Source: Escherichia virus TH15. From it: a DNA stretch of 64,000 bases. Below the pieces are notes generated by a model, which saw only the letters and a list, made by a program, of their open reading frames with translations, searched no databases and had not been told where the DNA came from. The stretch is from the sequence record MT446392.1; one strand, 5' to 3'. The position numbers were made by a program, and so were the translations under genes. Of the stretch, positions 2,286 to 60,927 are shown in pieces (the first letter of the stretch is position 1; each line of letters opens with the position of its first letter).

Positions 2286-2711
2286 ATGAACTTTCTGACC
2301 CTGACCTCTGCATTCTCTGTTACCCGCATCACTAACAAAATGGTTGCTGATGAAGTATGTGAAATCTGCATTCGTGAAGATGCACTTATCCATCTGACTT
2401 CAACCCAAATTGTTGCCATCGCCAAGTCCCTTAATTCTGAACTGAAGGTAAACACCAAACAGTCAAAAGAATCCATCATTGAATTAATCCAAGCTGAAAT
2501 GATTGAATTCCCAATTGAAGAAGTTAAAGAAGAAAAAATCCAGTCCAAATCTGGTAACGCCCGTGACATTTGCTTCCAGGCATTTGCAGAAATTGATATG
2601 AATGATAATGCAGCTCGTCGCGCTCTGATTGATGACCTGGTTACTACCCATGATATCAAAAAGACTGTTGTTCAGTCTTATGCTTCCAACTTCCGCAAAG
2701 CTCAAAAATAA
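2286..2711 (+). CDS. hypothetical protein (paralog of 2795..3238)
   Basis: 141 aa; C-terminal NxAARRALID...VQSYASNFRK shared with next gene. Confidence 0.6.
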   Translation: MNFLTLTSAFSVTRITNKMVADEVCEICIREDALIHLTSTQIVAIAKSLNSELKVNTKQSKESIIELIQAEMIEFPIEEVKEEKIQSKSGNARDICFQAFAEIDMNDNAARRALIDDLVTTHDIKKTVVQSYASNFRKAQK

Positions 2712-2722
2712 TTGAGAAAAGT

Positions 2723-2752
2723 GTTTTACTTCCAAGTGGGATAGTGTATAAT
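2723..2752 (+). promoter_or_regulatory. T4-type early promoter
   Basis: -35 GTTTTACT, -10 TATAAT, followed by conserved leader. Confidence 0.55.
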
Positions 2753-2794
2753 TATCCCATACTGAGTTACCAAATAAACAAACGGGATAATAAA

Positions 2795-3238
2795 ATGAAA
2801 ACTTCAAAACTGGTTAAGTACGTTAAACTGGCATTAAACAACTCTTCTGAAGCTGAAGCGCAATCCGCAGCGCGTATGTTCTTCAAACGTCTGACAGCTG
2901 AAGGTATTTCATTTAACCCGGCAGTATTTGGTATCACTCGTGGCGAAGCTGCTAAACTGGCAACTCTGGCAGGTAAAATTTTTAAAGGTCTGAATGATGG
3001 ACAGGTTAAACCAGAAGTTAAACCTACTCCTAAAGCTGAACCAAAAGCTGAGTGTAAGGCACCTAAACGCTCCGGTATGAGCAACAAAGATTTATGCTAT
3101 GATATGTTCAAAACTGTTAATATGTCTAATGGTGCTGCTCGCAGAGCTGTTATTGATATGATTGTGCGTGAGTTTGGATTCAACAAAGCATCAGTTCAAT
3201 CTTATGCTTCCAACTTCCGCAAAGAATTTGAAATTTAA
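2795..3238 (+). CDS. hypothetical protein (paralog of 2286..2711)
   Basis: ATG at 2795 after GGGATAATAAA; track ATG 2744 lies inside promoter. Confidence 0.6.
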   Translation: MKTSKLVKYVKLALNNSSEAEAQSAARMFFKRLTAEGISFNPAVFGITRGEAAKLATLAGKIFKGLNDGQVKPEVKPTPKAEPKAECKAPKRSGMSNKDLCYDMFKTVNMSNGAARRAVIDMIVREFGFNKASVQSYASNFRKEFEI

Positions 3239-3245
3239 TTCAAAA

Positions 3246-3265
3246 AGGGGGTATACAAGCCCCCT
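3246..3265 (+). terminator. GC hairpin (terminator-like) containing a promoter -35
   Basis: Stem AGGGGG/CCCCCT, 8-nt loop holding GTATACA. Confidence 0.5.
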
Positions 3266-3280
3266 GCTTTAAGGCATAAT
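3251..3280 (+). promoter_or_regulatory. T4-type early promoter embedded in hairpin
   Basis: -35 GTATACA in hairpin loop, 17-nt spacer, -10 CATAAT. Confidence 0.55.
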
Positions 3281-3319
3281 GATTCCATACTGAGTTACCA
3301 AATAAAACTGGAGAATAAA

Positions 3320-3625
3320 ATGAAATTCATCATCAACCTGGCGCTTGTTGACTTTGATAAAACTGGTAATTTCGCATCTGCTGAAAATATGATTCGCAAC
3401 ACTAAGTTCAAAGTGCAAGTCCAGCAGGCGGTAGCAAAAGAGTTCTTTACTGATAAATTAACCCACGTTGTCAATCACCTGAATGTGCAAGTTAAATTCA
3501 CTCGTAAAGCAGAAACTACAGTTGAATTTGATTTTGAATGTCGTTACCATGATGAATATGTTCGCCGCATCCTTAATATTGTATCTGATGAACTTTACTA
3601 TGGTGTGCAGGAAAACAAAATCTAA
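3320..3625 (+). CDS. hypothetical protein
   Basis: 101-aa ORF with GGAGAATAAA SD. Confidence 0.55.
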   Translation: MKFIINLALVDFDKTGNFASAENMIRNTKFKVQVQQAVAKEFFTDKLTHVVNHLNVQVKFTRKAETTVEFDFECRYHDEYVRRILNIVSDELYYGVQENKI

Positions 3626-3629
3626 ATCA

Positions 3630-3659
3630 GTGTACGCTTTAACGGGAACATGATAGTAT
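3630..3659 (+). promoter_or_regulatory. possible early promoter
   Basis: -35 GTGTACG, 17-nt spacer, weak -10 TAGTAT; overlaps 8-bp inverted repeat GGGAACAT/ATGTTCCC. Confidence 0.35.
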
Positions 3660-3701
3660 GTTCCCTGGATAATAAAACATTAACCAACTGAAGGAAATAC
3701 C

Positions 3702-4295
3702 ATGAATACTTTAAAGAAACTTGTTGAATTCATCCGCTCCAAACTGGGTACTGCAATGGCACAAAACCTGTCTATTGAAGACCAATATACTAAAGCGGCA
3801 ACAACCCTGATTGACAAGATTACTGAGCTCCAGACTGCCCACGTTAAGTCTGTTAATGAAGAAAAACGCATCCGCGAGTTAGCGAATGAAAAAGACCAGC
3901 TCGCTGCTTCAAAAGAGCGTGAAATCCGTAAACTGATTGCTGATGGTGCTGATGTTCAGGTCCATGCTAAACTAGGTCTCCTGTATCGCCACACGGCTAA
4001 ACAACTTCGTAAGAAGGCAGATGATTATGTTGAAATGCGTAATGAAATTAAATTGAAAGTTAAAGAGCTGGATGATTCTCGTCAGGAACTAGCTGTTAAA
4101 CTGGAATACATCCGCGAAACTCGTAAGGTATCTGCCCTGGGTATTGCGACTGCAGATGATGTTGTTGAAATCGCTGCATTGACTAAGATTGATATTGAAG
4201 ACACTCTGATGCGTGTTGAAACCTTCAAAGGCCCACAGGTTGGTGTGGATACCACATCCGCTGACATTGAAGAATACATCAATTCACTTAAGTAA
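3702..4295 (+). CDS. hypothetical coiled-coil protein
   Basis: 197 aa, charged heptad-rich sequence, AAGGAAA SD. Confidence 0.6.
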
Positions 4296-4301
4296 GATAA
4301 A

Positions 4302-4318
4302 AGGGGGCTTTGCCCCCT
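4302..4318 (+). terminator. GC hairpin, weak terminator
   Basis: Stem GGGGGC/GCCCCC loop TTT; no strong T-run. Confidence 0.4.
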
Positions 4319-4338
4319 AATTGGGAGAGGAGAATATT

Positions 4339-4893
4339 ATGACTTCATACGATAATCTTATATCAAATGTAGAATGGTTTGGCGGCAGTGGTCTTGCCAC
4401 TGAAACTAATACAGTTCTTTATAGAATCCGTGGTGACCTAGGTTATTCCAATGATTTCTTAAGAAGAACAACTAGTCGGGGCGATACTACCAAATTACCT
4501 TTTATTTTTGCTTTGGCTGAAGACCTTTCTTTCGCAGATGCCTTGGAAATTATTGACGTGAATCTGGGCATTCAACGAGTGGAATTCGCTGGACTACGTT
4601 ATTCAGTGTATGCATTAAACGACCCTAGCGATTATAGACAACTTATTGATGCAGACGATGATTATCATTTAGTGTGTTATTTGATGTTAGAAAATGGTGA
4701 CCACTTTGGAATGGTTGACCGCCGTCCAACTTACTCTGATATTAAAAATTATGATAAAGATGAGCTTACTATTTTGGCTGCTGAGTATACATCAGAGAGT
4801 CGTAAGCAACAACGGAAGCTTAATCGTTTTATTACTGAATGTCGTGAATATGCTAAAGGGGTTCAAAATGCGAACGCTATATCTGCCAAGTAA
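4339..4893 (+). CDS. hypothetical protein, C-terminal FITECR tail
   Basis: Track start 4321 is TTG; ATG 4339 after GGAGAGGAG SD. Confidence 0.55.
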   Translation: MTSYDNLISNVEWFGGSGLATETNTVLYRIRGDLGYSNDFLRRTTSRGDTTKLPFIFALAEDLSFADALEIIDVNLGIQRVEFAGLRYSVYALNDPSDYRQLIDADDDYHLVCYLMLENGDHFGMVDRRPTYSDIKNYDKDELTILAAEYTSESRKQQRKLNRFITECREYAKGVQNANAISAK

Positions 4894-5227
4894 ACCAGAA
4901 AAATTTGTATACGCGGACAAGATTGATAAAGACCTTATGCCTCCATTTGGAGCTTTGTCCATGTGCATCGTTGGGGTTATAATGATGGTGCTTTGTGGGG
5001 ATATGGATATCATTAGTGTCGGAGTCGCCTGGACACTAATAATCGCAACTCCTTTTATTACAGTCCTGAGTATGATTTTGATAAATGTGTGGCATCAAAA
5101 TCATATGAATAAAGGATATCGTGGACGAGTTAAAGAGTGGGAACAAAAATGTGTTTCCCTACAAAAAGAGCACAAAATTAAATGTGCAGAAGAATTTATC
5201 AAGGAGGTTCGCAATGGAACGGCCTAG
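4868..5227 (+). CDS. hypothetical membrane protein, C-terminal FIKEV tail
   Basis: ATG 4868 after AAAGGGG SD; hydrophobic helices; overlaps upstream gene end. Confidence 0.5.
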   Translation: MRTLYLPSKPEKFVYADKIDKDLMPPFGALSMCIVGVIMMVLCGDMDIISVGVAWTLIIATPFITVLSMILINVWHQNHMNKGYRGRVKEWEQKCVSLQKEHKIKCAEEFIKEVRNGTA

Positions 5228-5567
5228 TCTTGCACTACATGTTTATCAATTGGCTGAATATGATATTGGTGCCAATTTATTATTAGGGATTGTTACCGCT
5301 ATGCTCGGGGGCTTGGTTGGCCTGGTAATGACCACAGTTATGGCTGCAATCGAGGGAGTCATGCCTATTGAGATGGGCTTCTTTATGATAATTGCTCCGG
5401 CTGTTGTAGCCTATTTTATCCCGGTTGTGTATGATATCTGTCACACAAACACCTTGAATGCTCCCATCCGTAAGAGATACGCTTTGGCAATGGCTGAGTA
5501 TAATAAGTTCCTGGACAAAACAAAACGTAATGAACTTGAAACCTTTATTAAGGAATGTAAATCATGA
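5214..5567 (+). CDS. hypothetical membrane protein, C-terminal FIKECK tail
   Basis: ATG 5214 after AAGGAGG SD; hydrophobic helices. Confidence 0.55.
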   Translation: MERPSLALHVYQLAEYDIGANLLLGIVTAMLGGLVGLVMTTVMAAIEGVMPIEMGFFMIIAPAVVAYFIPVVYDICHTNTLNAPIRKRYALAMAEYNKFLDKTKRNELETFIKECKS

Positions 5568-5854
5568 ATAAAATTGAAATCGCTATCCCTAAGTATTATG
5601 ATGAGAAATCTGCAGAAAAAGCTATCTATTCTCTTCTAAATAAGACTTCTGAAATTGAAACACATTGTGAAGAAATCGCTGATGAATATGGCATTGAATT
5701 CAGCACCGGCGATTACGGCACAGGTCGTACATACCACCCAGTCGGTTATGAATGCTCTGAATGGTTTACCCATCATATTGAAGCCAATGGCGGTCGGGTT
5801 GAAAATGGTGTTGTTACCGTTGGTGCTTGGGTCTCCTCTTCTGAGATGTGTTAA
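5564..5854 (+). CDS. small protein, WVSSSxxC-tail family member 1
   Basis: 96 aa; ends GAWVSSSEMC; ATGA overlap with upstream gene. Confidence 0.55.
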   Translation: MNKIEIAIPKYYDEKSAEKAIYSLLNKTSEIETHCEEIADEYGIEFSTGDYGTGRTYHPVGYECSEWFTHHIEANGGRVENGVVTVGAWVSSSEMC

Positions 5855-5863
5855 GGAAATGGT

Positions 5864-6145
5864 ATGATGAACGATTACAGTAAAAATAAAGAACTGGCCA
5901 ACGCAGTAAACGAAATCCATAAAGCTATTCGGCGCGCCGAGGAAATTGCAGACAAATATGAGACTCATTTTAATATATACCCTGCTCGCGGTATGGGCGG
6001 TGACTATTATTCTCCTGGCGCCTTGAAAGCTGACCTTGCTCATTGGGAAAACTACGGTGAAGCCCAATACGCCATTGTTAACCAACATGACTACACAACG
6101 GACCTTGAAAAAGGTGGTTGGGTTTCCTCTTCTTCTGAATGTTAA
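5864..6145 (+). CDS. small protein, WVSSSxxC-tail family member 2
   Basis: 93 aa; ends GGWVSSSSEC; TAAGGAA stop-SD junction. Confidence 0.55.
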   Translation: MMNDYSKNKELANAVNEIHKAIRRAEEIADKYETHFNIYPARGMGGDYYSPGALKADLAHWENYGEAQYAIVNQHDYTTDLEKGGWVSSSSEC

Positions 6146-6153
6146 GGAATTAT

Positions 6154-6351
6154 ATGTCCCGTGAATTAGATTGTGCAATCCGTACTGCTGCGGCAGCTAT
6201 TGAAAACGTTATCCAGATTTGCAAAGAAGAACGCGAAGAAGCTGATATCTATATTGACGGTCAGCGTAATCTGGAACAACATATTACGCTTTATAATGGT
6301 TGTATTACTATTAGTGGTACCTCTTGGGTGTCCTCCTCTTACGAATGCTAA
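6154..6351 (+). CDS. small protein, WVSSSxxC-tail family member 3
   Basis: ATG 6154 after TAAGGAA; ends TSWVSSSYEC. Confidence 0.55.
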   Translation: MSRELDCAIRTAAAAIENVIQICKEEREEADIYIDGQRNLEQHITLYNGCITISGTSWVSSSYEC

Positions 6352-6359
6352 GGAAATAA

Positions 6360-6587
6360 ATGACTACTAAAACTGTTAAAGAAATTGAAGACCAAATCCG
6401 TGCACTAATCTGTGAAGGTGAACAGCTGGCCGATAAAACTGGTGAATACTTTCATGTATATGCTGACAGTCTTCAACGATATATTCCTGCGGGCTGTCCA
6501 GAATATGAAGAATATGACTGGATTCGCGGTGATTATGGTATCCCAGAAGGTAAAGGTTTCTGGTACACCTCCTCTATGTCTTGCTAA
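6360..6587 (+). CDS. small protein, WxSSxxC-tail family member 4
   Basis: 75 aa; ends GFWYTSSMSC; TAAGGAA junction. Confidence 0.55.
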   Translation: MTTKTVKEIEDQIRALICEGEQLADKTGEYFHVYADSLQRYIPAGCPEYEEYDWIRGDYGIPEGKGFWYTSSMSC

Positions 6588-6596
6588 GGAATAAAA

Positions 6597-6821
6597 ATGT
6601 CTGATATTAATGAATTAGAAAAAGCAGCTCTTGAACTGGCTGCGCTGTATAAGAAAGTTAAAGATATGGCTTCTGCTCAAGATTTCGGTATTGAGCTCGA
6701 TGATTATGATGGCGAAGTTCGTCTTGAAGACTGGTTGAACAGCTCTTGTTATGGTGAAGAAGCTGGTCGAACCTTCGTTGCTCACCCGGATGGTAAAATC
6801 TGGTACCCGAGCAGCTGCTAA
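6597..6821 (+). CDS. small protein, WxSSC-tail family member 5
   Basis: 74 aa; ends KIWYPSSC; TAAGGAA junction. Confidence 0.55.
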   Translation: MSDINELEKAALELAALYKKVKDMASAQDFGIELDDYDGEVRLEDWLNSSCYGEEAGRTFVAHPDGKIWYPSSC

Positions 6822-6865
6822 AATTATCACAAGGATGTGATAGGAGGACTTATGCACAAGATTTA

Positions 6866-6895
6866 GTATACAAGTCTAAAGAAACATAGTATCAT
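6866..6895 (+). promoter_or_regulatory. T4-type early promoter
   Basis: -35 GTATACA, 17-nt spacer, -10 TATCAT. Confidence 0.5.
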
Positions 6896-6923
6896 TATCT
6901 CGTCAACTAATGAGGAAATCAAT

Positions 6924-7154
6924 ATGTGGTATTACGCCCCAATGGCTGATGAGCCTGTGAAAATTAGTCGCGCTAAGTTTACAAAGATTTACGGCCTCGT
7001 TTATAAGAAGTCTGATTACGGTGTTCGTTTTGAAGATGCACACTGTATCAACGACCCTTATAATGAAGACCTCTATGGCAAATTGGTTCCTATCGTTAAG
7101 GGGTCCGCCTCTGAGATGATAGATGAATCTAATATCTCTGCTGCTGAAATTTAA
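6924..7154 (+). CDS. hypothetical protein
   Basis: 76-aa ORF after TGAGGAAA SD. Confidence 0.5.
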   Translation: MWYYAPMADEPVKISRAKFTKIYGLVYKKSDYGVRFEDAHCINDPYNEDLYGKLVPIVKGSASEMIDESNISAAEI

Positions 7155-7172
7155 GTTACTGAGGAAAATATT

Positions 7173-8132
7173 ATGATGTTAGTTATTGGCTCTCGCGCAT
7201 TACATAACGCCGGTCTGATTGAAAGTAAGAAAATTGAAAACTCTGATTGGGATTTTATCGCTGACCAGGGTTCCTGGAACAGCTTTAAAACCCAGATGAT
7301 GGGGCAGCATGTTCATGTGGATAACCCAGATGTGCAAGCTTTTAAATGTATGCACAATGGTAAAGAAACTTATTTTGAAGCGTACATCGTCCGCGCACTG
7401 ACAAGTGTTCGTGAGTTGACTGATGAGTTGCAAGAGGAAGATTTTACTTCCAGTTATCGTCTGCTCAAATATGCAAAGGCAAATATTCAGAAAGACCGTC
7501 TATCTGGTTTTTACTGGGCGACCCCTGATATTTGTCTGGCAATTAAATTGTCTCATCGTTACCTGAAGAACAATCCATTCTTCCTGAAGACAATGAGCCA
7601 TATTAATTACCTTCGTAATAAGGGTGTTGTTCTTAATGATGAACTACAAAAAATCATGCAACAACGACAGGCAGAAACACTGTCATATAGTCACCCTAAA
7701 CTAGACGTGGGCAAGAAAACTTTCTTTAATGATACAATCTATACCCTTGACCATGACTCCATCCACGAGGCCGTGGCGCTTGCTGATAAGCCTGCATATA
7801 AGTTCTATATGAAGGATGATTCAGAAGTCATGACCTCACGTGAAAAATTTGAAGCACTCCCTGATGTTATTAAACTGGCAGGGGTTTATGAAGAAGCATG
7901 TGTGCTCGCTCTGGAGCGTTCGCAGGTTCCTAACGAGTTTAGTATCCCGGCCAGTCATAGCTTCCATATGGCTCTGGAAAAAGTCTGCACCTCCATTACT
8001 TCTGGATGGTTTCGTGAGTATGCCTGGGAACATTACCAGGATGTGGTTAATATGTACAACACCCTGGGTCGCGAAGACTATGTTAAACGTTTCAAGGCTA
8101 ACCAGCATTTAATTCGTCCTTTTTCAAAATAA
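7173..8132 (+). CDS. hypothetical protein with possible nucleotidyltransferase-fold motif
   Basis: 319 aa; N-terminal IGSRALH...SDWDF resembles GS...DxD. Confidence 0.6.
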   Translation: MMLVIGSRALHNAGLIESKKIENSDWDFIADQGSWNSFKTQMMGQHVHVDNPDVQAFKCMHNGKETYFEAYIVRALTSVRELTDELQEEDFTSSYRLLKYAKANIQKDRLSGFYWATPDICLAIKLSHRYLKNNPFFLKTMSHINYLRNKGVVLNDELQKIMQQRQAETLSYSHPKLDVGKKTFFNDTIYTLDHDSIHEAVALADKPAYKFYMKDDSEVMTSREKFEALPDVIKLAGVYEEACVLALERSQVPNEFSIPASHSFHMALEKVCTSITSGWFREYAWEHYQDVVNMYNTLGREDYVKRFKANQHLIRPFSK

Positions 8133-54458: not shown

Positions 54459-54656
54459 ATGTTAAACCGTTGGATTAAACCAAATAAAACTTTAGATGAA
54501 GTTATTGCCCATGATGTCCATTTTAAGTATGGCCTGGGTGTGTTTGATGAGGTTATCGTACATTCATTCATGATGCACGATGATGATTCTTTAGAATTCA
54601 ATATTGAAATCCGTTGTGATGATGGTAAAGTTGAATTTAAACGAGGTTTCCTATGA
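54459..54656 (+). CDS. hypothetical protein
   Basis: 65-aa ORF after AGAGGAGAA. Confidence 0.5.
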   Translation: MLNRWIKPNKTLDEVIAHDVHFKYGLGVFDEVIVHSFMMHDDDSLEFNIEIRCDDGKVEFKRGFL

Positions 54657-55000
54657 TTAGTTGGCTCAAGAATTTATTCAAGACTAAACCAGGTGAAGGT
54701 GTGGTTCCTATTGCGCCATCGGATGTTAAACTAAGAGAATATGTTTACATGGGTGATGGTATGATGGAAGAAGTTATTCGTCAACCAGAAAAAGCTGGTA
54801 ATGTTGGCACAGGTGCATTGCCGTTGAATTCTAAAAAGTTAAAAGAACATTTGGATGCTCGCCGTACAAGTCATATCGGTACTACTTCGATTGTGGTGAC
54901 TGCGGCTGCGGTTAGTTCGTGGACAGGTGATTCATCTTATTCATCTTATTCATCATATGATTCAGGAAGCTGCGATTCGTCTTCCAGCTCGTGTGATTAA
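54653..55000 (+). CDS. hypothetical protein with Ser/Tyr-rich C-terminal tail
   Basis: 115 aa ending SSYSSYSSYDSGSCDSSSSSCD. Confidence 0.5.
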   Translation: MISWLKNLFKTKPGEGVVPIAPSDVKLREYVYMGDGMMEEVIRQPEKAGNVGTGALPLNSKKLKEHLDARRTSHIGTTSIVVTAAAVSSWTGDSSYSSYSSYDSGSCDSSSSSCD

Positions 55001-60251: not shown

Positions 60252-60927
60252 TGCTATTATTGACTTTGAAACTCTGGGAAACGGCTCGAAGGGAGCCGTT
60301 ATTGACCTGGCTCTGATTACATTTGAATCTGACCCTGCTATTGTGGAATCGTTCGAAACTCTGGTTAATCGCGGTAAACGAATTAAGTTCAGCCTAGAAT
60401 ACCAGAAAGGTAAACGTCTGTTTGACACAACAACTATGGGTTGGTGGAAAAAGCAATCTCCAGAAGCTCGTGTTAACCTGGCGCCGACGGCACAAGATGT
60501 TGATACTCTGACTGGTATCCAACAAGCGATTGATTATCTGAAGGGTAATGGAATTAACAAATACGAAAGCCTTATGTGGTGTCGTGGAATGTCTTTTGAC
60601 TTCCCGTTGTTTGTTGACCTTATTCGCGACCTGCAGCGCAATGAGGGTATCCCTGAGCGCGAATTGAATACCTATGACCTGGAACCAGTTGTATTCTGGA
60701 ACCAGCGAGATATCCGAACAGCAATCGAAGCACTGTCACTCGTCCGTAAGATGTGTGAAACTCCGTTACCGAAGGGGACTTTGGATGGATTTGTAGCGCA
60801 TGATAGTGTGCATGATTGTGCGAAAGATATTCTTATGTTGAAGTACGCCCAGCGCTATGCTCTTGGTTTAGATGAAGTTCCTGCCGAAGAAGATGCAGAC
60901 CCGTTATCTTTACCAAAAAAACGATAA
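60244..60927 (+). CDS. dexA: exonuclease A (DEDD family)
   Basis: 227 aa; IIDFETLG, HDSVHDCAKD; matches T4 DexA. Confidence 0.9.
   Translation: MIDAIIDFETLGNGSKGAVIDLALITFESDPAIVESFETLVNRGKRIKFSLEYQKGKRLFDTTTMGWWKKQSPEARVNLAPTAQDVDTLTGIQQAIDYLKGNGINKYESLMWCRGMSFDFPLFVDLIRDLQRNEGIPERELNTYDLEPVVFWNQRDIRTAIEALSLVRKMCETPLPKGTLDGFVAHDSVHDCAKDILMLKYAQRYALGLDEVPAEEDADPLSLPKKR

Follow-up and report, generated by a model that had tools for sequence, protein, structure and literature searches.

Enzymes of the DNA polymerase beta (pol-beta) fold that nucleotidylate protein hydroxyls are well established, among them GlnD acting on PII, GlnE, MNT acting on HEPN, and DrrA. Here we analyse a phage locus that may hold a further system of this kind, located in a stretch of 64,000 nucleotides from Escherichia virus TH15 (sequence record MT446392.1; this whole stretch is hereafter called the window). 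An array of five small plus-strand genes, named A to E (5564-6821), precedes a gene whose product carries DUF7277 and DUF7275 domains (7173-8132; the partner gene). An initial annotation had described five co-oriented genes and their C-terminal tails, and both are present in the list of open reading frames (ORFs) and in the raw sequence; the conserved partner gene had been missed. We find that the small family is, in genetic terms, almost obligately paired with the DUF7277/DUF7275 gene, with one to six tail genes upstream on the same strand in very different phages. Because of the pol-beta precedents we rank first, at a probability of roughly 0.4, the reading in which the small proteins are clients modified by the downstream enzyme, probably by O-nucleotidylation of serine, and act early on host targets. 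The partnership itself is well supported, while its direction (client or regulator) and its chemistry are hypotheses.

Comparison with characterised systems

Among known systems, GlnD/PII, a uridylyltransferase and uridylyl-removing enzyme with the small signalling protein on which it acts, comes closest in function to the proposed enzyme-client pair. GlnD combines a pol-beta-type nucleotidyltransferase domain with a His/Asp-rich second domain and acts on a hydroxyl of a protein of about 100 amino acids (aa), much as is suggested here. However, hhalign detects no relationship to GlnD, the fold of the small proteins is not that of PII, several paralogous clients would accompany one enzyme, and the present module is confined to phages. 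The proposed acceptor also differs, being a C-terminal Ser/Cys tail instead of the T-loop tyrosine of PII.

The DUF1814 toxins (AbiEii with AbiEi, MenT with MenA) resemble the partner protein in size (about 300 aa), in an N-terminal hG[GS]…DhD signature with a longer-than-canonical spacer (15 in AbiEii; PMC3985639) and in a helical C-terminal domain. Their genes likewise lie just downstream of a smaller partner gene, and one homolog of our partner protein has a marginal match to the AbiEii hidden Markov model (HMM). On the other hand, motifs III (KLxAaxxR) and IV (+DxxD) of DUF1814 (PMC3985639) are not present, the nearest segments being K125-M-S-H-R129 and Y-D-H194-D195-S-I-H198, and the small proteins are unrelated to AbiEi and MenA, form arrays of one to six and occur in virulent phages rather than in bacterial chromosomes.

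The type VII toxin-antitoxin system HEPN-MNT offers a precedent for a nucleotidyltransferase that poly-AMPylates the protein of a neighbouring gene. In contrast to HEPN proteins, the array proteins are alpha/beta, without the Rx4-6H motif or fold and without any conserved Arg or His, and the putative enzyme is three times the size of the minimal nucleotidyltransferase. Arrays of ribosomally synthesised and post-translationally modified peptides (RiPPs), for instance lanthipeptides and aminovinyl-cysteine (AviCys) peptides, share the layout of divergent precursor-like genes upstream of one enzyme, with a conserved recognition part and a variable middle. The i, i+3 spacing of S90 and C93 (gene B numbering) in Ser-x-x-Cys-COOH also resembles that used for lanthionine or aminovinyl-cysteine rings, although in resemblance only. 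Nevertheless, no enzyme of the LanB/C/M/KC/L or LanD type was found near the array by Pfam and PHROG searches of the neighbouring genes or by clustering of 42 loci, there is no protease or exporter, and the 'precursors' are predicted to be stably folded domains of 65-100 aa, not leader-core peptides.

Small phage inhibitors such as Ocr, Arn and Ugi are alike in size, strong negative charge and early expression from an accessory region, but have no sequence or fold similarity to the array proteins and possess neither an invariant C-terminal motif nor an obligate enzyme partner. The nucleotide-signal sponges Tad1, Tad2 and Acb2 are also dissimilar in sequence and fold. T4-type internal head proteins start with a capsid-targeting sequence of the form MKTYQEFIxE, cleaved by the prohead protease, and a comparison by eye finds none in the N-termini of A to E (MNKIEIAIP, MMNDYSKNK, MSRELDCAI, MTTKTVKEI and MSDINELEK, respectively). 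A genuine N-terminus of this type (MKTYQEFINE…) was seen in one of the compared loci (L032). The module lacks defining features of each compared system, and we rate it outside every characterised kind, even if its chemistry may prove to be a variant of protein nucleotidylation. A literature search found no paper on either family, on the tail motif or on the linkage. Already known are the sequences themselves, deposited as hypothetical proteins and catalogued in PHROGs, and the two Pfam DUF entries of the putative enzyme.

The five array genes belong to a phage-only protein family

All array genes lie on the plus strand: gene A at 5564..5854 (96 aa, tail GAWVSSSEMC), B at 5864..6145 (93 aa, GGWVSSSSEC), C at 6154..6351 (65 aa, TSWVSSSYEC), D at 6360..6587 (75 aa, GFWYTSSMSC) and E at 6597..6821 (74 aa), the last with an internal EDWLNSSC besides its terminal KIWYPSSC. 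For gene C we take the ATG at 6154, which has an AAGGAA Shine-Dalgarno sequence; an alternative ATG upstream at 6139 would give 70 aa. In comparison with nine related phages, the ratio of nonsynonymous to synonymous substitutions (dN/dS) of all five genes is about 0.02-0.34 (A 0.06-0.17, B 0.04-0.34, C 0.02-0.13, E 0-0.2), which is purifying selection. These low values indicate that the genes are real and functionally maintained, not fast-evolving ORFans, and rule out an arms-race diversification of the array.

The five genes had been proposed to be paralogs, and this stands for A, B, D and E, all of which match phrog_899, a PHROG of unassigned function (A, 2e-22; B, 1.3e-21; D, 1.5e-15; E, 6e-10). 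Gene C is instead a shortened, divergent relative that shares the tail; it has a PHROG of its own (phrog_4882, 2.9e-36) and is matched by the family HMM at only 1e-3, compared with 1.6e-24 for A and 3e-17 for D. Compared directly, only the pairs A-B (1e-5) and B-D (3e-4) are significantly similar, and any other similarity is confined to the tail; C is tied to the others through its last 18 aa alone, which are 50% identical to those of A, while E joins through the phrog_899 HMM. Pfam, NCBIfam and PADLOC gave no match to the array proteins, so that profile searches place them in no well-characterised family.

An exhaustive profile search of 1.84 billion representative proteins yielded 88 clusters at 50% identity, all of 71-153 aa, and phrog_899 is matched by 92 of 93 aligned relatives. 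The family consensus can be written M..(helix)..AE.IADE.G-.F.F-..YGMGGTYYP..(acidic, W/Y-rich variable linker)..G.W.SSS..C, with a median isoelectric point (pI) of 4.4 and a median net charge of -9. In the databases its members are throughout named 'hypothetical protein' or obviously mis-annotated, for instance as 'major capsid protein', 'tail completion protein' or 'group I intron endonuclease' by automated GenBank annotation.

The same array occupies the same site in phage RB69, where ORF139c and ORF138c represent the A type, ORF137c the B type (…GGWVASSHTC) and ORF136c, the ortholog of gene C, the C type (…QGWVSSSYSC). RB69ORF139c and ORF138c are frameshift-split halves of one A-type gene (RB69 stretch 3676-3982), and the second half still ends in …GAWVSSPALC. 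As the A, B and C types are already distinct in RB69, the paralogs are older than the split between Mosigvirus and Dhakavirus. Further arrays, each with two to four members, are found in Providencia phage PSTCR6, Pseudomonas phage psageK4 (Otagovirus), Escherichia phage ESCO5 (Phapecoctavirus), Ralstonia phage RSP15 and Acinetobacter phage Lazarus. The array consists of long-standing paralogs, each conserved in its own right, from a large family of small, strongly acidic alpha/beta proteins that occurs only in phages.

In T4, scanning 131 kb (1-82 kb and 120-169 kb) with the HMM revealed no family member, nor was the partner found in the regions scanned. This agrees with the earlier impression that the tail belongs to no recognised T4 family. 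The best T4 match, Tk.1 (60349-60549), is rejected as a member, being non-significant (E 0.017) and without the tail; the weak match runs through …EYGDAETYYE…, which is reminiscent of the family hairpin motif. The lack of both families from the scanned regions of the model phage would explain how both escaped study.

A positionally conserved C-terminal tail

The five window proteins all end in W-x(1-2)-S-S-x(0-3)-Cys with Cys as the last residue. The 64-kb window has 1,076 stop-to-stop ORFs with a length of 30 aa or more; the ending W..SS.{0,3}C occurs in five of them, exactly genes A-E, against a chance expectation of about 0.002 by a rough composition estimate. The motif is not a chance feature. 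Over the 88 clusters at 50% identity the alignment columns of its W, S, S and C show hardly any variation or none, and Cys is last in 79 of 84 clusters, so the similarity is positional and not compositional; in the other five clusters one residue follows the Cys, and four clusters without the tail seem truncated. In gene B numbering, the tail columns are W86 (92/92), S89 (90/92), S90 (Ser or Thr, 90/90) and C93 (89/89), and as S90 is replaced by nothing but Thr, a hydroxyl is kept there. Elsewhere in the protein, the best conserved columns are A29 (88/93), D30 (80/93), F36 (78/93), G43 (78/88), G45 (82/90) and Y48 (88/92). Each protein has one conserved Cys and no conserved His, the extra Cys of A, C and D not being family-wide. 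The two-motif layout of gene E recurs in eight family clusters, and in some members the motif is repeated within a single protein: WESSSEGWESSSEGWVSSSSQC.

A parallel had been drawn with the tail of the ORF at 54653-55000 (…SSYSSYSSYDSGSCDSSSSSCD), which proved spurious: this end is low-complexity Ser/Tyr/Asp sequence without Trp or terminal Cys, and the ORF has no match to the family HMM.

The genes within the array are closely packed, and the predicted use of the stop region as the next ribosome-binding site is borne out at all four internal junctions. These have the form TG[TC]-TAA-GGAA-N4-5-ATG, with the stop/Shine-Dalgarno heptamer TAAGGAA at 5852..5858, 6143-6149, 6349-6355 and 6585-6591 (plus strand), while at the e.3/A junction AAGGAA sits inside the coding sequence of the T4 e.3 homolog. 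The tail serines of A-D are encoded by TCC/TCT (TCC TCT TCT etc.; 5830-5848, 6125-6139, 6327-6340 and 6559-6570) and those of E, the last gene, by AGC AGC (6809-6815). One could imagine that what is kept is a ribosome-binding region or a coupling structure made up of the Cys codon, the stop codon and pyrimidine-rich serine codons, and that the tail is a by-product of nucleotide-level constraint; the TG[TC]TAAGGAA common to the junctions and the codon difference of E would suit this idea. It is effectively refuted. The junction RNAs show no significant secondary structure and fold no better than shuffled controls (z -1.2 to +1.8), which rejects sequestration of the Shine-Dalgarno sequence or translational coupling through Ser-codon structure and leaves the choice of TCC/TCT over AGC without an RNA structure to account for it. 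Moreover, 88 distant clusters and array-terminal genes retain the tail as a protein sequence, with differing codons, and dN/dS lies well below 1.

Linkage to a DUF7277/DUF7275 gene

The partner gene (7173..8132, plus strand; 319 aa) starts about 350 nucleotides downstream of the array. We surveyed 80 viral loci encoding partner relatives of 37-97% identity, including contigs of 355-389 kb. HMM-detectable members of the small family are present in 70 of the 80; they always share the strand of the partner gene and, with few exceptions, lie no more than about 2 kb upstream of it. Independently of the profile, ORFs ending in W-x(1,2)-[ST][ST]-x(0,3)-C were counted in the same loci: 220 of 1,267 upstream same-strand ORFs have such an ending, compared with 4 of 8,209 other ORFs. 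In this way 73 of the 80 loci are positive, each with one to six such ORFs, and among the seven negatives two lack DNA upstream of the partner gene. Where the HMM detects no member, divergent upstream ORFs of 80-180 aa nevertheless end in the tail (…NWDSSTC, …DWASSRC, …WESSESSEC, …SWQSSQQNC), which makes the tail the most persistent feature of the family.

The linkage also holds in reverse. A degenerate DNA pattern for the codons of YGMGGTYYP, a motif exclusive to the small protein, was used to search viral contigs and gave 13 loci; the partner gene is immediately downstream in ten, and the remaining three are truncated on that side, two of them coming from contigs already known to encode the partner. 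In Providencia phage PSTCR6 the full DUF7277/DUF7275 gene (HMM E 3e-113) spans the origin of the circular record and is unannotated in GenBank. Clustering of ORFs in 42 non-redundant loci revealed no third conserved gene, since no other family occurs in more than 11 loci (8 without antisense shadow ORFs). With no third family, and with both genes absent from the T4 regions scanned, the conserved unit consists of at least one small tail-bearing protein followed by a DUF7277/DUF7275 protein.

Genes for tRNA lie within 5 kb of the partner gene in 11 of the 42 non-redundant loci, and a strict linkage to tRNA genes is rejected on this count. An RNA ligase gene adjoins the partner in RSP15 and in Streptomyces phage Blueeyedbeauty. 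This proximity may hint at an RNA-related role or merely reflect clustering in accessory regions.

A putative nucleotidyltransferase

The partner matches DUF7277 at aa 2-101 (1.7e-27) and DUF7275 at aa 120-305 (3.1e-76), and its PHROG is phrog_2141, with no function assigned. A protein of about 300-325 aa is encoded shortly 3' of the array in five different phage lineages, the window's included; these proteins are 41-48% identical across lineages (E ≤ 1e-59), and the window and RB69 proteins are 74% identical. The family comprises 2,778 clusters at 90% identity, all of about 300-330 aa and without meaningful names. By tblastn, it was found in 696 of 50,697 deposited phage records, from hosts such as Escherichia, Klebsiella, Acinetobacter, Aeromonas and Pseudomonas, with a divergent form in Streptomyces and Gordonia phages. 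Only 3 of 72,556 plasmids have partner matches, all weak, partial and from Gram-positive hosts, and blastn of the module against 5,426 complete E. coli genomes gave no match. Some GenBank entries mislabel the partner as 'baseplate hub subunit', 'prohead assembly scaffold protein' or 'HNS-dependent protein'.

Among 28 partner sequences below 62% identity, G6, S7, D25 and D27 vary little or not at all, and the next strand holds a conserved Glu. The segment I-G6-S7 … D25-W-D27 has the form of the pol-beta nucleotidyltransferase signature, which we took as hG[GS]-x9-13-DhD plus a third acidic residue; the third acidic residue is present and the spacer, at 17, is longer. The C-terminal domain holds invariant K125, H128, R129, K139, H174, H194-D195, H198, E240, E241, E248, R249, K270 and R281, together with an invariant C272 (KVCTSITSGW), and its H…HD…H pattern may be an HD-like metal site. 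Single members give sub-threshold matches to nucleotidyltransferase models (DUF6036, 0.0049; NTP_transf_5, 0.022; AbiEii, 0.0029), to which unrelated chance matches are similarly strong, and some GenBank annotators independently chose the label 'putative nucleotidyltransferase'. An NCBIfam search with the partner returned noise only. We infer that the partner is probably an enzyme whose N-terminal domain is a nucleotidyltransferase of the pol-beta type (G-S…D-x-D…E) and whose C-terminal domain is helical and rich in His, Asp and Glu.

In Blueeyedbeauty (gp206) and Gordonia phage Bachita (gp18), a small acidic, apparently beta-rich ORF follows the DUF7275 gene and might be an alternative partner.

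Predicted structure of the gene B protein

A structure prediction of a single member had been suggested, and gene B was chosen for it. With an alignment of 93 sequences, AlphaFold2 gave a model with a mean predicted local distance difference test (pLDDT) score of 93.9 and a predicted template modelling (pTM) score of 0.81, while only 14 sequences had given a poor one (pLDDT 55). The model contains a helix (4-31), a hairpin (35-41/44-49), a second helix (51-63), a short helix and a strand at 84-88 (G-G-W-V-S). The terminal turn at 89-92 is less certain and the last four residues have a pLDDT of about 64, which suggests that the tail needs a partner. In terms of the family, the N-terminal helix runs to A-D-x-x-G and is followed by the beta-hairpin with its Y-G-x-G-x-T-Y-Y-P turn, a variable acidic linker rich in Trp and Tyr, and the final strand with the tail G-x-W-x-S-S-S-x-x-Cys-COOH. 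Searches of solved structures returned no match to the small proteins by sequence and no significant fold neighbour for the B model.

A proposed enzyme with several clients, and the alternatives

In the reading that we favour, the small proteins would be protein clients of the downstream putative nucleotidyltransferase. The folded body would present a flexible tail with its Ser hydroxyls, Cys thiol and free alpha-carboxylate to the enzyme, which would modify it covalently; the most plausible reaction is O-nucleotidylation of Ser89/Ser90, perhaps with a later step that involves the terminal Cys. Once modified, the paralogs, which would be made early, would target different host components by way of their variable acidic linkers. 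The tail residues are conserved without a structural role, comprise two hydroxyls, a thiol and an obligatorily free alpha-carboxylate, and are placed with low confidence in the model; such a tail has the look of a docking or acceptor peptide. We also consider a stricter version, as a tentative possibility that is more probably wrong than right: W-x-S-S-S-x-x-Cys-COOH would be the substrate motif of a new phage post-translational modification, in which the DUF7277/DUF7275 nucleotidyltransferase O-nucleotidylates the tail serines of folded effectors, and the outcome would be either a protein-linked nucleotide or a lanthionine-like ring. For the ring, the nucleotide would serve as leaving group and the terminal Cys would close it. 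If this is true, hundreds of virulent phages, though not T4, would share an enzyme-matured multi-paralog effector system.

Several points weigh against the enzyme-client reading. The putative nucleotidyltransferase assignment stands on a short motif and sub-threshold HMM matches; a PDB profile search with the partner returned nothing at E ≤ 10, and hhalign was null for E. coli Cca and T4 NrdC.11 as well as for GlnD. A small acidic protein upstream of a nucleotidyltransferase is the classic antitoxin-toxin layout, the tail could merely plug the active site, and the conserved Tyr48 rather than the Ser pair could be the acceptor. Since the search profile included the tail, its conservation among profile matches is partly circular, and the independent support for the tail is the positional, profile-independent test. 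Furthermore, Blueeyedbeauty and Bachita encode divergent DUF7275 proteins (251 and 263 aa) without an upstream W-SS-C partner, and in Brevibacillus phage Sundance a 93-aa acidic ORF (stretch L106, 2656-2937) 5' of the DUF7275 gene ends in EEEEYSSSYYEEEEYSSSYYEED, with repeated aromatic+SSS units, no Trp and no Cys. The Sundance ORF may show the form that the partner motif takes in phages of Gram-positive hosts. These cases indicate that the enzyme can exist without this client and that the Cys is not universal.

Among the alternatives, we think it rather unlikely, though less so than the others, that the small proteins are antitoxin-like regulators, with the enzyme acting on another substrate (a host tRNA, an RNA or a nucleotide) and the tail inserted into its active site, on the model of the small antitoxins of MenT and AbiEii-type nucleotidyltransferase toxins. 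The gene order, with a small, acidic (pI about 4.4) and co-oriented gene directly upstream of a larger enzyme gene, matches type II, IV and VII toxin-antitoxin systems. The marginal AbiEii-model match of one homolog is in line with this, the partner-less actinophage enzymes point to a function of the enzyme's own, the nearby tRNA genes (11/42 loci) and the RNA ligase genes adjacent in two phages would suit an RNA substrate, and an invariant tail fits a single invariant binding pocket. Up to six individually conserved paralogs per enzyme are, however, hard to square with the inhibition of one protein. DUF1814 motifs III and IV are missing from the enzyme, no antitoxin family was matched in the Pfam and PADLOC searches, and a virulent phage has no evident need of toxin-antitoxin logic. 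The maintained paralogs (one to six), the motif repeats, the restriction of S90 to Ser/Thr and the variable acidic body together favour several clients of one enzyme over a single inhibitor.

It is improbable that the array encodes stand-alone early host-takeover or anti-defence proteins, for instance DNA or nucleic-acid mimics, which share no more than a mobile accessory cassette with the enzyme and use the tail for their own target binding or stability. Their strong negative charge and poly-Asp/Glu linkers, the hyperplastic accessory site between e.3 and e.2 with its early-type promoters, and a superficial likeness to Ocr, Arn and Ugi would agree with such a role; no known mimic or sponge is similar in fold or sequence. 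The linkage, however, survives in Straboviridae, Otagovirus, Phapecoctavirus, RSP15 and jumbo-phage contigs, where all other neighbouring genes differ, and it holds in both directions, which exceeds what hitch-hiking on a cassette would give. Thiol or metal chemistry seems still more improbable. Here the terminal Cys, with its thiolate, carboxylate and neighbouring Ser, would bind a metal or carry a sulfur or redox equivalent exchanged with Cys272 of the enzyme, oligomers adding ligands. The Cys is indeed invariant and necessarily the last residue, members with a double motif offer two, and the enzyme has an invariant Cys besides invariant H128, H174, H194, D195, H198, E240, E241 and E248. Against this, each small protein has a single conserved Cys and no conserved His, with the extra Cys of A, C and D not conserved, the Brevibacillus partner has no Cys, and sequence and fold searches found no similarity to metallochaperones or sulfur carriers.

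Whichever direction holds, the linkage of the tail family to a putative nucleotidyltransferase indicates an undescribed two-part phage system. The two-gene rule, an invariant Ser/Cys tail on a fold without neighbours beside a putative nucleotidyltransferase, provides a testable handle on phage 'dark matter'. Enzymatic modification of the tail, if it occurs, would amount to a new system of protein modification and bring a new class of early effectors in phages of the type used in therapy; if the small proteins regulate the phage nucleotidyltransferase, the substrate of the enzyme becomes the question, and either way the biology would be new.

Genomic context and minor features

The window belongs to a T4-like phage. 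Phages VR7, VR25, JS98, IME08 and like genomes (Gaprivervirus, Dhakavirus) are 83-93% identical to window positions 5400-7000. In the VR7 annotation, the five array genes are 'hypothetical proteins' 3' of the T4 e.4 and e.3 homologs and 5' of e.2, nudE and e, in an accessory region bounded by tRNA genes and the lysozyme gene. The array lies between e.3 and e.2 in the VR7 and RB69 annotations alike, while in T4 e.3 directly abuts e.2; in the window the e.3 homolog (5121..5567, plus strand) marks the insertion site and is itself outside the module. Between array and partner lies a 76-aa plus-strand ORF (6924..7154; phrog_3723), a homolog of RB69ORF135c, which is lineage-specific and outside the conserved core. 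On the minus strand, a 180-aa ORF at 5636-6178 overlaps genes A and B; as both the purifying selection and the family homologs belong to the plus-strand frames, it is best read as a shadow ORF.

The T4 counterpart of this region is known to be transcribed early. Here, promoters of the early type lie at 2725 and 3252, and stretch 2500-7300 is free of the late TATAAATA box; together this suggests that the array is expressed early in infection.

The perfect 7-bp inverted repeat noted in the initial annotation after the array is present (TATCACA/TGTGATA, 6825..6842, plus strand) and stands immediately before a Shine-Dalgarno sequence AGGAGG (6842-6847) and an ATG at 6852. It is rejected as a terminator, because no U-run follows the stem and the terminator scan did not pick it up. 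The hairpin is kept in VR7, VR25 and JS98, with one compensatory pair in JS98 (CCACA…TGTGG), and is a conserved intercistronic hairpin preceding a Shine-Dalgarno sequence. The ATG behind it opens a real ORF in VR25 and JS98. In the window and in VR7 only a four-codon remnant is left (ATG CAC AAG ATT TAG, 6852-6866 in the window), which looks like a deletion scar.

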